A DNA stretch of 64,000 bases from Candidatus Gastranaerophilales bacterium (GTDB lineage: Bacteria; Cyanobacteriota; Vampirovibrionia; Gastranaerophilales; Gastranaerophilaceae): NCBI GenBank assembly GCA_944325665.1, contig CALVAY010000005.1, forward strand, positions 18,702-82,701. Direction: 5' to 3'. The notes under the pieces were generated by a model. It was not told the DNA's origin. It did no database searches and worked only from the letters and a program-made list of their open reading frames with translations. This document shows, in pieces, positions 5,434-9,754 of the stretch; the stretch's first letter is position 1, and the number at the start of each line of letters is the position of its first letter. The translations under genes and the position numbers were made by a program.

Positions 5434-5509
5434 GCCCCCATCGTCTAGAGGCCTAGGACAACACCCTTTCACGGTGTAGACAGGGATTCGAATTCCCTTG
5501 GGGGTACCA
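5434..5509 (+). tRNA. tRNA-Glu (anticodon UUC), CCA encoded
   Basis: Cloverleaf read by eye. Acceptor stem is GCCCCCA/TGGGGGT. The anticodon arm is ACACC-CTTTCAC-GGTGT. The T arm is AGGGA-TTCGAAT-TCCCT. It ends with discriminator A plus CCA. Confidence 0.9.
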
Positions 5510-5822
5510 AATAAAACTAATTAGCGGCATATAGCCGCTTTTTTAATGGGAATTCGAATCCTAAGTAAATTCTTACGTTCCCTCACACAAGGTTCGTGAA
5601 GTTCCCATGTGTGTACCAAATAAAACTAATTAGCGGCATATAGCCGCTTTTTTAATGTGAATTCGAATCCTAAGTAAATTCTTACGTTCCCTCACACAAG
5701 GTTCGTGAAGTTCCCATGGGGGTACCAAATAAAACTAATCAGCGGCACATAGCCGCTTTTTTAATGGGAATTCGAATCCTAAGTAAATTCTTACGTTCCC
5801 TCACACAAGGTTCGTGAAGTTC
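5506..5822 (+). repeat. Tandem repeat, 109-bp unit x 2.9, derived from the tRNA-Glu 3' end plus its terminator
   Basis: Units start at 5506, 5615 and 5724. Each carries the terminator hairpin AGCGGC-atata-GCCGCT+T6. A roughly 74-nt segment follows with a TTCGAAT T-loop-like box, ending ..TTCCCATGGGGGTACCA (the tRNA ends TTCCCTTGGGGGTACCA). Confidence 0.9.
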
Positions 5823-5836
5823 TTATCAGAGTATAA

Positions 5837-6508
5837 TTAGATATTAGTAGTATTTTCTAATATACACTTAATCGCATCAATATCTTTTTGATAATTATAT
5901 CCCTTTTGTCTGTTTTTAAGTATTTTTCTTTGTTTTTTACAGTTTTTATACAATTTATTGCAGCCGCACCAGCATCTTTCATACCCTTTCTTTTGTTTTT
6001 CAATGCTTTCTTGCAAAGTGTTTAAAAAATTGTAAACAGCTTTTATATCTGCTAAGTCATACTTTTCCATATAATACTTTGCAATCCCCATTGCACCATG
6101 TTCTGCTTCGCCAAACGGCCAAACTTTATGTTTTTCAAAGTATGAATTTTGCGCTAAATACCCTATCAATAACTTATTTACATAATCAATAAGTCTGTAA
6201 TTAGGTGCAAGAACCCTTGCTATTTCAATAGGACGGCCCACACAAAGTGTTCCGTCCTCGTTAATATGTTCATTTTCGTCTTTTTTTATACGGTTTTCAA
6301 TTTCAAAAGCTACTATCATTTCTTTTGGGTAATCTTTTGGAATTAAAAGTCTTATTGCGTATTGGTCTTCAATTTTTTCGTTTAAAATTACCGTTGAAAA
6401 GCCGATGTATCCTTCAATTATGTCATATTCGCCGTAACTTTTATGCACTAAATAAGGATGTTCTTTTCTCAGATATTTAAATTCAACTTCTATATCAAAA
6501 GACTTCAT
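5837..6508 (-). CDS. Stand-alone E2 (ubiquitin-conjugating-like) protein of a CBASS operon, with a C-terminal SEC-C-like Cys motif
   Basis: 223 aa. HINEDGTLCVG resembles the UBC active-site signature H-x-N-x3-G-x-x-C. The C-terminus has CWCGCNKLYKNCKK. A strong RBS (GGAGGAATAATG) precedes the start. It overlaps the CD-NTase gene by 14 nt. Confidence 0.6.
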   Translation of the reverse strand: MKSFDIEVEFKYLRKEHPYLVHKSYGEYDIIEGYIGFSTVILNEKIEDQYAIRLLIPKDYPKEMIVAFEIENRIKKDENEHINEDGTLCVGRPIEIARVLAPNYRLIDYVNKLLIGYLAQNSYFEKHKVWPFGEAEHGAMGIAKYYMEKYDLADIKAVYNFLNTLQESIEKQKKGYERCWCGCNKLYKNCKKQRKILKNRQKGYNYQKDIDAIKCILENTTNI

Positions 6509-7628
6509 TATTCCTCCAAGGTTTAATCGGGTCGCTCATTTCAATTTTTTTCTTGGGTGCAATAATAACTCTGTCTTGATATTTAATTTTATTTATCTTA
6601 TATGCCGTTTCAAGAGTTTCTGAAATATTTACGCCTTCTTTTAGCAGTTCTTCAAAAAGATTATTTAACGATTTAAGCCAAGAAAAGAAAACCTGAGCCT
6701 TTCTTGGTGTTTCTTGCCATTTGTCGGCAAAGTTTTCTTCTTTTATTGTAGGGTTTTCAACAAAATAAACCCCGTTTTTTGTTTCTATATAGTTGTGCAT
6801 ATTGGCACAAATATTTTTTAGAGCATCAAATAAGTTGTCTTCCCCATTGTATGCTTTGGTTGCAAGAGTAGTTATGATAATTGAAATTGGTTTGTCATCA
6901 TCATTGCCCCAGTTAATATCCCTGTGGTGTTTTAGCAAACTGATTGCTTTTTGCAGCACGGTTTTTCTTTTATAAAGAGGAAAATCGTCAACGGACTCAT
7001 TTGCTGCAAGCAAAGTTCTTTGGTTTTTCATCATTTTTTGACGCATTTCATTTTTAAACCAAGTAATGTACCCTTGCGGGTTACTTTTTAACCAATCATT
7101 GCTTATAATTTTGTAATCTTTGTGTTCCTTGTCGGTTATACATATAGCTTGATTTATTGAGCCTGCTAAATATTTTAGCTCATTGTAATTGTTAAGACTA
7201 ACGGGTATTGCCGGTAAAATATCCATATGAAATTTGCTGCTGTCAGCATATTTTAAAGTCCAGCATCTTCTGCCGCCGTCCTTGGGGTCAAGCAATTTGG
7301 AGTATGTTCCGTTTTCTTTTAATCTTTCGCCAATTAAATTTTTAAGTTCTTCTTGGCTAAAATCATCGCAAGTGCCTTCCAAAAGACAAACTAAATCAAC
7401 ATCATATTCACAACCGCTTTGTGGTTTTATGGCAGTACCGAACGCAAAAGAGCCTTGTGCATAAATTTTAGGATTGTATTTTTTTAATTTTGAGTTTTCT
7501 CCGGCAAGCCATTCTCCTAGCGCATCATAACTTCTTTTGGCGTCTTCATATTTGCTCTCGGGTACTGAGATGTCCGTGTAAATTTCTTGTAATTTTTTTT
7601 CTATGTTTACTACATTTTCCCTAATCAT
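6495..7628 (-). CDS. cGAS/DncV-like nucleotidyltransferase (CD-NTase, SMODS family)
   Basis: 377 aa. It has the Pol-beta NTase catalytic pattern: QGSFAFGT (G-S), EYDVDLV (DxD) and a later HMDILP. The RBS GAGGAG precedes the start. It sits between the effector and E2 genes. Confidence 0.75.
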   Translation of the reverse strand: MIRENVVNIEKKLQEIYTDISVPESKYEDAKRSYDALGEWLAGENSKLKKYNPKIYAQGSFAFGTAIKPQSGCEYDVDLVCLLEGTCDDFSQEELKNLIGERLKENGTYSKLLDPKDGGRRCWTLKYADSSKFHMDILPAIPVSLNNYNELKYLAGSINQAICITDKEHKDYKIISNDWLKSNPQGYITWFKNEMRQKMMKNQRTLLAANESVDDFPLYKRKTVLQKAISLLKHHRDINWGNDDDKPISIIITTLATKAYNGEDNLFDALKNICANMHNYIETKNGVYFVENPTIKEENFADKWQETPRKAQVFFSWLKSLNNLFEELLKEGVNISETLETAYKINKIKYQDRVIIAPKKKIEMSDPIKPWRNNEVF

Positions 7629-7630
7629 TT

Positions 7631-8815
7631 TTAATTCTCCTCTTTGTTGTTTATGGTGATAGCGTGTTTGTACTCTGTGCTTTTGTCGTTTAAATTATAA
7701 ATTTTCATTGGCATATCTGCTCTTGGCAAAATTAATCTTCCGAATTCAACATTTGCACTTACGGGCATTGCAGCAAAAACATTTAAAAATGTGCCCGGTT
7801 GGTAATTATTCTTAATTTCATCAAGAACTTTTCTTACATATTCTTTAAACGCACAAAGTTGATTTTTGGCTTTAATAATATTAGGATTTGGCTCTAAGGC
7901 TGAAATTGTCCATATGTCGCAGTCTTGACCCAATACTTTCTTTATGGAGTCATGATTTATCGAACCGCTTAAAGAAAGACTTAGTGCCGGTGTTTTCCTG
8001 TAAAATGTTTTAGGTTTATCTACAATAAAATTTGCCGCATCATAGTCTTTTTGCCACTTCCAATCTTCCTCTTGTGAAACTCTGTTGGGTTGAAAAACCT
8101 CCGCCTTAATAACATCACCAATTAAATACCCTAAATAAATTAAAAGCGGTTGACAAGCCATAGCAAAAATACTTAAATGCTTAATTGTGTTATCATCCAA
8201 ATAAGGTTTAACTTTGGTTCTAAACTGATCATTTAGGTTTTTTACTTCAATGTCCCAATAAAAATTATTTTCATCATTATTATCGCTCCAAGGTGTTTCT
8301 ATATTCAGCCTGATAATATCTCCGTCAGGGTATTTTTCAGGCAAAAGAGTATTAGCTATATTTTCTTCGTTTAAATGAACAGCTCGTTTGCCTATTTTAG
8401 TAGAATATATTAAAATTTTTGATTTCTTATCGGGTTTAATGTTTGTAACAATCCTTATTCTGTCCTCGTGTTCTTTTTTCATTTTACGAAGCACATCAAC
8501 TGTATAAATATCAACCAAAGCCTTGTCTATAATGTCATGATGATGTTCCTTGCAAAGAAGCATAAGATTTGAAACATCTTTAGCTAACTTTGGCGATAGA
8601 ATTTTATCACCCCTTGGCCCATCTTCGCTTGCCGCAATAATGTGTGCAATGTTTGAAGTGTTTACTTTTGTACTGGTAAGCCCTTCTTGCCAAAGCTCTT
8701 TGTTACATCCTTTAAATTCGCATCTTCCTCCTGATTTTGACCACAGTTCAAAAACTTTGTGCTGCTCAATCTTTGCCCTTTCGGGCTTTTTCTTCTCTTT
8801 TTCATTTTTTGGCAT
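7631..8815 (-). CDS. cap5: Cap5-like CBASS effector: N-terminal HNH endonuclease plus a C-terminal SAVED-like sensor domain
   Basis: HNH region: CEFKGC..NIAHIIAASEDGPRGD..NLMLLCKEHHHDIID. The C-terminal domain of about 260 aa is of SAVED size. I prefer the ATG at 8815 (MPKNEKEKKK), preceded by GGAGGA, over the track start at 8884. The SAVED assignment rests on architecture and context, not on a motif. Confidence 0.65.
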   Translation of the reverse strand: MPKNEKEKKKPERAKIEQHKVFELWSKSGGRCEFKGCNKELWQEGLTSTKVNTSNIAHIIAASEDGPRGDKILSPKLAKDVSNLMLLCKEHHHDIIDKALVDIYTVDVLRKMKKEHEDRIRIVTNIKPDKKSKILIYSTKIGKRAVHLNEENIANTLLPEKYPDGDIIRLNIETPWSDNNDENNFYWDIEVKNLNDQFRTKVKPYLDDNTIKHLSIFAMACQPLLIYLGYLIGDVIKAEVFQPNRVSQEEDWKWQKDYDAANFIVDKPKTFYRKTPALSLSLSGSINHDSIKKVLGQDCDIWTISALEPNPNIIKAKNQLCAFKEYVRKVLDEIKNNYQPGTFLNVFAAMPVSANVEFGRLILPRADMPMKIYNLNDKSTEYKHAITINNKEEN

Positions 8816-8915
8816 AAAATATCCTCCAACTCCTGTAATTTTTTGTAAAATAGAGCCGGCATGCCTTGACAACGTGGCAAACAATAAAGTATGCTATTGG
8901 TAACGTTTTTTTTGT

Positions 8916-8935
8916 GTCGGCAAGAAATTGCCGAC
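8916..8935. promoter_or_regulatory. Perfect 8-bp inverted repeat (candidate operator or 5' leader hairpin) between the CBASS operon and the divergent wHTH gene
   Basis: GTCGGCAA-gaaa-TTGCCGAC, located just downstream of the putative CBASS promoter. Confidence 0.4.
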
Positions 8936-8953
8936 TCTATTTTTAATATACCT

Positions 8954-8983
8954 ATAATAACCTGTGAATATGGCATGCGTCAA
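8954..8983 (-). promoter_or_regulatory. Putative sigma70-like promoter of the CBASS operon
   Basis: On the minus strand: TTGACG (8983-8978), an 18-nt spacer, then TATTAT (8959-8954). Confidence 0.35.
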
Positions 8984-9061
8984 CTAAAATTTTTAAGTAT
9001 TTTTTAAATTTCAAGCTATTATTGTGTTTTTGAGATGAGAATAAAAAAAATTAAAAATCTG

Positions 9062-9090
9062 TTGTTAAAAAATTTAGTTTCTGATAATAT
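9062..9090 (+). promoter_or_regulatory. Putative promoter of the 9117 gene
   Basis: TTGTTA (9062-9067), a 17-nt spacer, then TAATAT (9085-9090). Confidence 0.4.
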
Positions 9091-9116
9091 AATTTTGTCC
9101 TTAAAAGGAATGGTTT

Positions 9117-9734
9117 ATGCAAAGTCAAAAGTATAATTCCCTGTTGAAATTAGTCGCAAATGATGGCGGCCATATAAAAATTAATAGAAAACTTGTCGCA
9201 AAATACGGTATAGAGGTCGCCTGTGTTTACAGCGAATTGTTAAATATGCAGATTAACTCAAAAAAGAATCGTGAAAACTTTCTTTTTTTGGATGGCGATT
9301 GTTTTTCACTGAATACGGAAAAATTGTCAGACGAACTTGGCATTTCACCGCATAAACAAAGAGTCATACTTCAAACCCTGCAAGAAGAAGGGCTTATCCA
9401 AGTTTATTATGGTTCTGGTAAAAACAGATTAATTAAAGTTAACGACGATATAGATGTTTTGTACGAAGTTTTAAACCCGTCTGAAGACATTGATGAACTT
9501 TACTTTGAAAATTTATTCTATGACATAAATGTGCTTAAAAACGCTATTCTTAAGAGTTTAAAGCAGCTTTACAGAAAAGAAGAAAAAAGAATCTTCGAAG
9601 ATAAATTTTTTAATTATATTAAAAAATACAACAAAAAAGAAGACGATGAAAAGCTTCAAATAAAGCTCTTCGAGTGCCTTTTAGAAGATAACAGCGTGCA
9701 AAAGGAAATTGCAAAGGAAAAAATAACTACTTAA
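9117..9734 (+). CDS. Winged-helix DNA-binding protein (DnaD / replisome-organizer-like N-terminal domain); possible mobile-element remnant or regulator
   Basis: 205 aa. The segment LSDELGISPHKQRVILQTLQEEGLIQVYYG is an HTH-plus-wing pattern. The gene is divergent from the CBASS operon. Confidence 0.45.
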   Translation: MQSQKYNSLLKLVANDGGHIKINRKLVAKYGIEVACVYSELLNMQINSKKNRENFLFLDGDCFSLNTEKLSDELGISPHKQRVILQTLQEEGLIQVYYGSGKNRLIKVNDDIDVLYEVLNPSEDIDELYFENLFYDINVLKNAILKSLKQLYRKEEKRIFEDKFFNYIKKYNKKEDDEKLQIKLFECLLEDNSVQKEIAKEKITT

Positions 9735-9754
9735 ACCTTTGTTAATTGCGAATG

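Follow-up and report, generated by a model that had tools for sequence, protein, structure and literature searches.

Does the gene group next to the tRNA-Glu gene in this genome of a gut Melainabacterium form a complete anti-phage system, and of which genes does it consist? It lies in a window of 64,000 nt (here meaning the whole stretch of DNA analyzed) on contig CALVAY010000005.1 of a Candidatus Gastranaerophilales bacterium, and a preliminary description made from the sequence alone had interpreted it as a three-gene anti-phage signaling system based on cyclic oligonucleotides (CBASS). We conclude that it is very probably a horizontally acquired module of four genes, belonging to the type II-short (E2-only) CBASS with the cyclase CdnG, a nucleotidyltransferase of the cGAS/DncV-like type (CD-NTase), and the effector Cap5. 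The cyclase and effector genes form an operon with the gene of a stand-alone E2 enzyme of the ubiquitin-conjugating (UBC) fold, and a divergently oriented gene encodes a winged helix-turn-helix (wHTH) protein.

The operon genes were confirmed as minus-strand open reading frames (ORFs) with lengths of 394, 377 and 223 aa (Table 1), and the effector gene stands first in the gene order. Between the stop codon of Cap5 and the ATG of the cyclase gene there is a gap of 2 nt, the cyclase and E2 genes overlap by 14 nt, and a Shine-Dalgarno sequence of the GGAGG type precedes the ATG of all three genes. The tight coupling and the strong Shine-Dalgarno sites are as described previously. The motifs named at that time were also verified in the sequence, namely NIAHIIAASEDGPRGD / LLCKEHHHD for the effector, QGSFAFGT, YDVDLV and HMDILP for the cyclase and HINEDGTLCVG for the E2. 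A cyclase-E2 fusion by frameshifting at the 14-nt overlap was considered and found no support; the corresponding junctions in sister modules measure 1-4 nt.

The first gene had been assigned the Cap5 architecture, an HNH nuclease followed by a SAVED domain, and this assignment holds. The protein matched the PADLOC effector/endonuclease model PDLC00739 (E-value 2.7e-134) and the SAVED_HNH model (2.5e-125), both of them full-length models, and its SAVED domain was recognized by Pfam (7.7e-40) and NCBIfam (4.6e-42). Among solved structures, 7rwk was matched over residues 15-384 (4.3e-73), followed by 7rwm and 8fm1, and the HNH motif AHI...DGPRGD...NL.LLC..HH could be aligned with all three. Taken alone, the Pfam HNH_2 model remained below threshold (0.0033). 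The ATG of the 394-aa form was taken as the start instead of TTG 8884, from which the maximal ORF begins, because, counted on the 394-aa form, the profile matches begin at about residue 12, and 394 aa is also the length given by the gene callers in 7 assemblies. Within the species, the Cap5 alleles of L005, L006 and L108 are 98% identical to that of the window and the cyclase is 100% identical; L108 carries a Cap5 of 396 aa whose gene has an overlap of 4 nt. This allelic variation may be an effector-specific diversification.

The second gene product matched the PADLOC cyclase model (4.6e-116) as well as the Pfam models for SMODS (6e-12) and DncV-like nucleotidyltransferases (4.6e-8). The top three matches in the PDB are all CdnG proteins, from V. 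cholerae (VcCdnG, 9woo, 2e-61), S. marcescens (SmCdnG, 8hsb, 1.9e-28) and BdCdnG (7ljn, 6e-9). The GS motif (QGSFAFGT), the DxD motif (YDVDLV) and the third aspartate (HMDILP), from which a CD-NTase had been proposed, align with the active sites of 9woo and 8hsb, and the lid SNPQGY has SNPEGY and SNPSGY as its counterparts in VcCdnG and SmCdnG. By these alignments the cyclase is assigned to clade G, and its active site is intact. The N/Y lid is the commonest configuration in clade G, and 3'2'-cyclic GMP-AMP (3'2'-cGAMP) was identified as the product of VcCdnG (PMC12804361). Since VcCdnG makes this molecule and the N/Y lid is common to both enzymes, the predicted signal is most likely 3'2'-cGAMP, as from VcCdnG and AsCdnG.

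The E2 is less easily recognized. No match was obtained in Pfam or NCBIfam, a single-sequence search of the PDB gave only noise, and a word-index homologue search found 4 clusters only. It matched, however, seven PADLOC models for stand-alone E2 proteins (best PDLC00871, 5.1e-46), and the PADLOC models for E1-E2 fusions score far below these. An exhaustive HMMER search (E<=1e-10) yielded a family of 615 representatives, and in an alignment of 77 sequences (A2) the residues H81, C89, H137, G141, C179 and C190 are invariant. The family profile reached UBE2W-like eukaryotic UBC proteins in the PDB (4.5e-6), and the HxN...C active site lines up with theirs, so that the UBC-like site read earlier in HINEDGTLCVG is supported. 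The AlphaFold2 (AF2) model is of high quality (pLDDT 92.7, pTM 0.87) and was matched by Foldseek to UFC1, UEV and UBC domains with a probability of about 1. The C-terminal half consists of helices and the motif CxCGSGK...C(H), for which the family profile reaches the SEC-C zinc peptide of SecA (3.5e-5). By profile and motif, the E2 is classified as a member of a large SEC-C-bearing subtype, which is distinct from SmE2 of S. marcescens, the sole characterized stand-alone E2.

With E-values from 1e-46 to 1e-134, the quality of the profile matches for the three proteins is far beyond chance. For the partner genes of the longer type II systems, PADLOC models were run against the 57 other ORFs of the window with a threshold of 1e-5. 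No E1, JAB or Cap model was matched, in agreement with the absence of an E1 or JAB gene noted before. Because the identities of Cap5, CdnG and E2 hold and neither E1 nor JAB is encoded in the window, the E2-only ('type II short') layout with the effector first is supported.

In addition to its catalytic core, the cyclase carries an extension of about 50 aa, in which a conserved hydrophobic strand followed by proline and the IE(L/M) segments are common to its relatives, and it terminates with KPW-R-NNEVF. Related cyclases of about 400 aa have tails that are built alike (hydrophobic strand-P-x-K...IE(L/V)...KPW-x-x). KPW-tail cyclases from other phyla (L104, L106) pair with the same E2-SEC-C subtype, and in two proteins with unrelated non-cyclase N-terminal domains, P0197 (660 aa) and P0268 (372 aa), a KPW tail is fused in cis to an E2-SEC-C. 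P0197 was considered as a cyclase-E2 fusion, but BLAST revealed no cyclase similarity; its N-terminal domain, which bears the KPW tail, is a different one and metallo-hydrolase-like. Because tail and E2 are paired in unrelated phyla and fused on non-cyclase proteins, the KPW tail is clearly the predicted partner element of this E2 subtype, and the tail RVIIAPKKKIEMSDPIKPWRNNEVF of the cyclase is its predicted E2-recognition module. The fusions suggest that the pair may also serve outside CBASS. The highest-scoring homologues of the cyclase (50-60% identity) are CD-NTases of about 500 aa with an AGS-C domain in place of the tail, and no E2 was found in the one such context examined (L107, the contig with P0014). 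The operon in L107 encodes a SAVED effector, a CD-NTase-AGS_C and a 224-aa protein with a faint Peptidase_C92 match, in this order, and adjoins a type I restriction-modification (R-M) system and Mu-like transposition genes.

If the CdnG-Cap5 system operates like its relatives, phage infection would cause CdnG to make a cyclic dinucleotide, most likely 3'2'-cGAMP. The SAVED domain of Cap5 would bind the cyclic nucleotide and Cap5 would oligomerize, whereupon its HNH domain would degrade DNA indiscriminately and the cell would die before phage progeny are released (abortive infection). The E2 would bind the cyclase tail '...IIAP-x-K...IKPW-R...' and, by analogy with the E2-CBASS of S. marcescens, may trim it and capture it covalently on Cys89, thereby priming or activating the cyclase. 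The S. marcescens system consists of SmCdnG, SmE2 and a 2TM-SAVED effector (Yan et al., bioRxiv 10.1101/2022.05.25.493364; PMC12948482; PDB 8hsb, 8yjy, 9kkb). SmE2 trims the C-terminus of the cyclase, after which it joins Gly406 by a thioester to Cys101 and by an isopeptide bond to Lys159, and the exchange G406R in SmCdnG abolishes defence, the glycine being termed highly conserved (PMC12948482; bioRxiv 10.1101/2022.05.25.493364). A C-terminal helix and a three-stranded sheet of SmCdnG recruit the E2, and His152 of SmE2 acts as a pH sensor (same sources). In the module, the residue at the attachment position is not a glycine, and the linkage may not follow the chemistry of SmE2 exactly.

The E2 of the same CBASS might act in a way unlike SmE2. 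The KPW tail could be conjugated or cleaved at a non-glycine residue (the tryptophan or the next residue), or the E2 could exert a non-covalent or a negative control, its SEC-C zinc knuckle supplying an extra input such as nucleic-acid or partner binding. The residue after KPW is indeed variable, both in 28 related tails (R13, G7, S2, K2, M2, C1, Q1) and in the sister modules (R, S or C), the invariant H137 and the SEC-C motif are not found in SmE2 as described, and the KPW tail occurs fused to the E2 on non-cyclase proteins. However, the His/Cys dyad of the UBC site is invariant, the position of the tail and its β-strand-Pro pattern resemble the E2-recruiting C-terminal motif described for SmCdnG, and nothing directly shows another chemistry. 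We regard a different action of the E2 as possible but on balance doubtful.

Several observations weigh against the proposed E2-only CdnG-Cap5 mechanism or parts of it. The last 44 residues of the cyclase contain no glycine, an arginine follows the conserved tryptophan (tail ...DPIKPWRNNEVF), and an equivalent of Gly406 of SmCdnG is absent. The E2 family profile fails to reach SmE2 in the PDB, and because the C-terminal half of the E2 differs, the steps at Lys159 and His152 of SmE2 may not apply; the invariant H137 may or may not be a counterpart of the SmE2 histidine. The NCBIfam equivalog model for cGAS scored below its cut-off (82 vs 150 bits). Phage as the trigger, the identity of the nucleotide and the activity of the E2 are predictions, and the role proposed below for the wHTH protein is derived from position, co-inheritance and fold.

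The wHTH gene is located 301 bp upstream of Cap5 in opposite orientation. The nearest related operons, with E2s that are 56-60% identical, lie in two other neighbourhoods, one with PDT/PGM/RNase HII and one with rhamnose biosynthesis genes. At the same position beside every related operon a wHTH orthologue (54-73% identical) is present, which gives three genomic contexts in all, and the gene is absent from all 13 CBASS-free congeneric species. Since the wHTH gene and the leader described below accompany the operon in three unrelated contexts, the module was counted as four genes. The preliminary reading of a three-gene operon is thus correct for the co-directional genes and too small for the unit as a whole. 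The comparison with related genomes that was proposed earlier showed variable presence: the module was detected in 5 of 5 same-species contigs spanning the site and in none of 13 congeneric species that are syntenic on both sides. Its absence from these congeners, together with the occurrence of the same four-gene unit in two other contexts, argues for horizontal acquisition.

The AF2 model of the 205-aa protein (pLDDT 75) comprises the wHTH at residues 24-108 and an all-helical C-terminal half. Foldseek revealed similarity to N-domains of RepA_N initiators, CodY and MarR with modest TM-scores, and in Pfam a weak Rrf2 match was obtained (2e-4). No WYL match was obtained in Pfam, and the protein has neither an XRE-type HTH nor a partner protease. 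The family is small (18 clusters). Its distant members are oriented divergently from other cargo, namely DUF8370 (about 286 aa) or a 106-aa HNH protein, at a distance of 400-470 bp, and they occur (L098-L103; P0130, P0135, P0137) in defence-like or mobile regions that contain genes for reverse transcriptase (RT), DndB, STM3845, R-M, PLD-nuclease, integrase and resolvase. Possibly, DUF8370 is an uncharacterized gene for defence that a regulator of this kind controls. With modest confidence, we consider the wHTH protein to be the transcription factor of the module, which probably represses or tunes the operon via the conserved intergenic region and the leader.

Instead, the protein could have a Rep-like or a mobility function in a small mobile module, with the CBASS as cargo. 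This would fit with the best fold matches, which are N-domains of RepA_N plasmid initiators (5kbj, 4pql, 4pt7), with a weak PHROG match to 'replication initiation protein' (8e-4), with the distant family members in integrase- and resolvase-bearing elements and with the movement of the module among genomic contexts. The TM-scores to RepA_N are, however, just 0.5-0.57, with similar values for MarR and CodY, and tblastn found no relatives among 72,556 plasmids and among 50,697 records of phages. The 3.9-kb insert is without an origin-like iteron array, integrase or transposase, and the family members examined are all divergent from variable cargo (the Cap5 operon, DUF8370 or a small HNH gene) at 300-470 bp, which is typical of a local regulator. 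A Rep-like function is therefore unlikely in our view.

The intergenic region between Cap5 and the wHTH gene shows 76% identity with conserved blocks in an alignment of five modules. For the operon, a -35 element GTTGAC is invariant in these five related modules, and the promoter-like site of the wHTH gene lies inside a block of about 30 nt that is near-invariant across modules. The 5' leader of the operon, with equivalents in L088, L089, L094 and L096, can form a long-range stem of 13-15 bp, in which AAAAUAGAGUCGGCA pairs with UGCCGGCUCUAUUUU, and a local perfect hairpin at 8916-8935 (GTCGGCAA-N4-TTGCCGAC) competes with this stem. RNAalifold predicted 26 pairs with two-sided changes at 3 of them. 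The minimum free energy is -32.6 kcal/mol (z = -3.39), and equal stability was reached in 0 of 200 shuffles. The leader also holds three copies of G[T/C]CGGCA, which are possible operator half-sites. Its role may be that of a regulatory RNA switch or that of an array of operators for the wHTH protein. No Rfam family was matched by the leader or by the 109-bp repeat downstream of the operon. Within the last repeat unit, the terminator-like hairpin nearest to the E2 stop is likely the terminator of the operon.

A further possibility is that the operon is decaying or has fallen silent and, as a relic, no longer serves in defence. The cyclase tail is four residues longer after KPW-x-x than in its relatives, and NCBIfam equivalog models stayed below their cut-offs. 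On the other side, all ORFs are intact, every catalytic motif is kept and the genes are still translationally coupled. At least 7 independent metagenome assemblies from three studies share an identical cyclase, the module is fixed in the species, and both promoter and leader show conservation across modules that have diverged. A relic thus appears very improbable; the operon is intact and, as far as can be judged from its sequence, probably functional.

The module adjoins a tRNA gene followed by tandem repeats, and it had been placed in an island starting at this gene. The adjacency to the tRNA-linked repeats was confirmed, while an integrase/att island was not. Every 109-bp unit holds a copy of the 17-mer at the tRNA 3' end, which was found in the proximal repeat only. 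The repeat also occurs in CBASS-free congeners with variable copy number. Between 5510 and 9755 no integrase, recombinase or other mobility gene was found, and the insert (~5823-9754) showed neither a distal att copy nor a GC anomaly. An interpretation of the three repeats as att scars of serial integration was rejected, since they are also present in CBASS-free congeners and the distal copy is absent. The 109-bp repeats are a genus feature and not an integration scar.

Repeats of 93-109 bp are also located downstream of tRNA-Glu in L009-L012, L014, L015 and L017. The unit consists of three elements. A terminator hairpin is accompanied by a small hairpin, in which compensatory changes occur (GCAA/UUGC, GUAA/UUAC, GUCA/UGAC), and by a CCCUCA:UGGGGG stem, which mimics the acceptor stem of tRNA-Glu and ends with ACCA. 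The units gave no Rfam match and no tRNA call. Copy number varies between strains, with a distance from E2 to the next gene of 193, 302 or 402-410 bp, and between species, with 0-2 extra units. Presumably, these elements resemble the tyrT/rtT repeats of E. coli.

In place of the module, the congeners have a slot of about 1.5 kb with one or two secreted TonB_C-like genes. A role of this slot as a defence hotspot was rejected, since the congeners carry these genes and no alternative defence cargo. In one congener (L017, ~8570-8900), the slot after the tRNA repeats holds two copies of a repeat of about 170 bp (GACCCTGCCCAGTAGGGACATTTTGCAC...) with no secreted-protein gene. A 380-aa TonB_C-like gene was observed between the FliI-type ATPase gene and an 87-aa ORF in some same-species contigs (L108, L109, L113); it is absent between 3835 and 4304 of the window and from L001 and L004. 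The operon is flanked by the wHTH gene on one side and by tRNA-Glu on the other, and the remainder of the window consists of housekeeping genes. By pyrF and the genes around it, the window, which derives from a metagenome-assembled genome, was assigned to Gastranaerophilales (Melainabacteria), close to 'Ca. Galligastranaerophilus'. Outside 5837-9734, single PADLOC cross-matches were obtained for PDC-M37B (7.7e-39), DolB (6e-32) and IetA, mad8 and TRIP13 (~1e-8), which are most likely ClpB/ClpX-type AAA+ proteins and nucleotide-sugar enzymes and not defence genes.

Table 1. Positions of the module and of neighbouring features in the window
Feature	Position	Strand	Remarks
Cap5 effector	7631..8815	-	N-terminal HNH ~residues 15-122, C-terminal SAVED ~131-390
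Clade-G CD-NTase (CdnG)	6495..7628	-	Predicted catalytic residues G59-S60, D76/D78, D136; lid SNPQGY; C-terminal tail RVIIAPKKKIEMSDPIKPWRNNEVF
Stand-alone E2, UBC fold	5837..6508	-	HxN...C site H81, C89; invariant H137; SEC-C-like zinc knuckle C179, C181, C183/C190
205-aa winged-helix DNA-binding protein	9117..9734	+	Divergent from Cap5; putative transcriptional regulator
Promoter-like site of the Cap5-CdnG-E2 operon	8954..8983	-	TTGACG, 18 nt, TATTAT; consensus scan 10/12; consensus match only
Promoter-like site of the wHTH gene	9065..9093	+	TTAAAA, 17 nt, TATAAT; consensus match only
Conserved structured 5' leader, ~130 nt	8816..8950	-	Between promoter-like site and Cap5 start
Bidirectional terminator-like hairpin	5741..5757	both	Nearest to the E2 stop; scan of both strands; within last tRNA-linked repeat unit
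tRNA-Glu(UUC)	5434..5509	+	ARAGORN; Rfam tRNA 58 bits; sole tRNA of the window
109-bp tRNA-linked tandem repeat, 3.0 copies	5493..5822	+	TRF score 618, 95% matches; proximal insert boundary; not part of CBASS

The assignment to CBASS is in itself routine, as CdnG-Cap5 and E2-CBASS are both published and DefenseFinder or PADLOC would call the locus automatically. It documents CBASS in the gut Melainabacteria (Gastranaerophilales), an uncultured lineage, with a clean pattern of fixation in one species and absence in 13 congeners; we found no literature on CBASS in Gastranaerophilales/Melainabacteria. The wHTH gene and the leader are omitted by current three-gene CBASS models and could matter for heterologous reconstitution. 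The E2-CBASS of S. marcescens, the sole one characterized biochemically, may not be representative of the larger E2-SEC-C/KPW-tail subtype, in which the 'essential' glycine is lacking. We also put forward, tentatively, that E2-SEC-C and the tail '...ΦΦΦΦP-x-K...KPW-x' are a distinct and widespread bacterial tag-and-conjugase pair without C-terminal glycine, which is not restricted to CD-NTases, and which is combined here with a new wHTH regulator family and a structured leader also controlling other defence cargos. If this is true, the operon would give access to a second kind of ubiquitin-like regulation in bacterial immunity, one that works by a different mechanism. Judged from the sequences, the additions (fourth gene and leader, an E2-SEC-C/KPW subtype that lacks the canonical glycine, and a Melainabacterium as host) seem to raise the interest slightly above that of a routine call.

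Transcription factors associated with CBASS are reportedly of the types CapW/BrxR (wHTH-WYL) and CapH-CapP. As there, a DNA-binding protein is encoded divergently from the defence operon and family relatives stand beside different defence-like cargos, but the 205-aa protein is without WYL, XRE-type HTH or partner protease and forms its own small family.

CdnG-Cap5 systems were described in V. cholerae, Asticcacaulis sp., Lactococcus lactis and Acinetobacter baumannii (PMC12804361, PMC8568899; PDB 9woo, 7rwk, 7rwm, 7rws, 8fm1). The module agrees with them in cyclase clade, in the GS/DxD/D residues with the N/Y lid and in an HNH-SAVED effector matched over its full length, and by analogy a 3'2'-cGAMP signal and a Cap5 oligomerization that triggers DNA cleavage may be expected. 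It differs in its effector-first gene order, in a sequence identity of only ~35-45%, in its Melainabacterial host and in the E2 and wHTH genes, which clearly belong to the unit; the accounts of V. cholerae consulted here do not discuss an E2.

With the S. marcescens E2-CBASS, the module has in common the E2-only type II layout, a clade-G cyclase with a C-terminal extension past the nucleotidyltransferase core and a UBC-fold E2 with His and Cys. However, SmE2 is a protein of 162 aa with a Lys/His loop, whereas the E2 here has 223 aa, a helical C-terminal half with SEC-C and no detectable sequence similarity to SmE2, and Cap5 takes the place of the 2TM-SAVED effector. The type II CBASS with Cap2 (an E1-E2 fusion) and Cap3 (JAB) was characterized by Ledvina 2023 and Jenson 2023 (PMC10097602). 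While neither an E1 domain nor a JAB isopeptidase is encoded in the window, both systems would share a UBC-fold enzyme that regulates the CD-NTase via its C-terminus in a ubiquitin-like manner.

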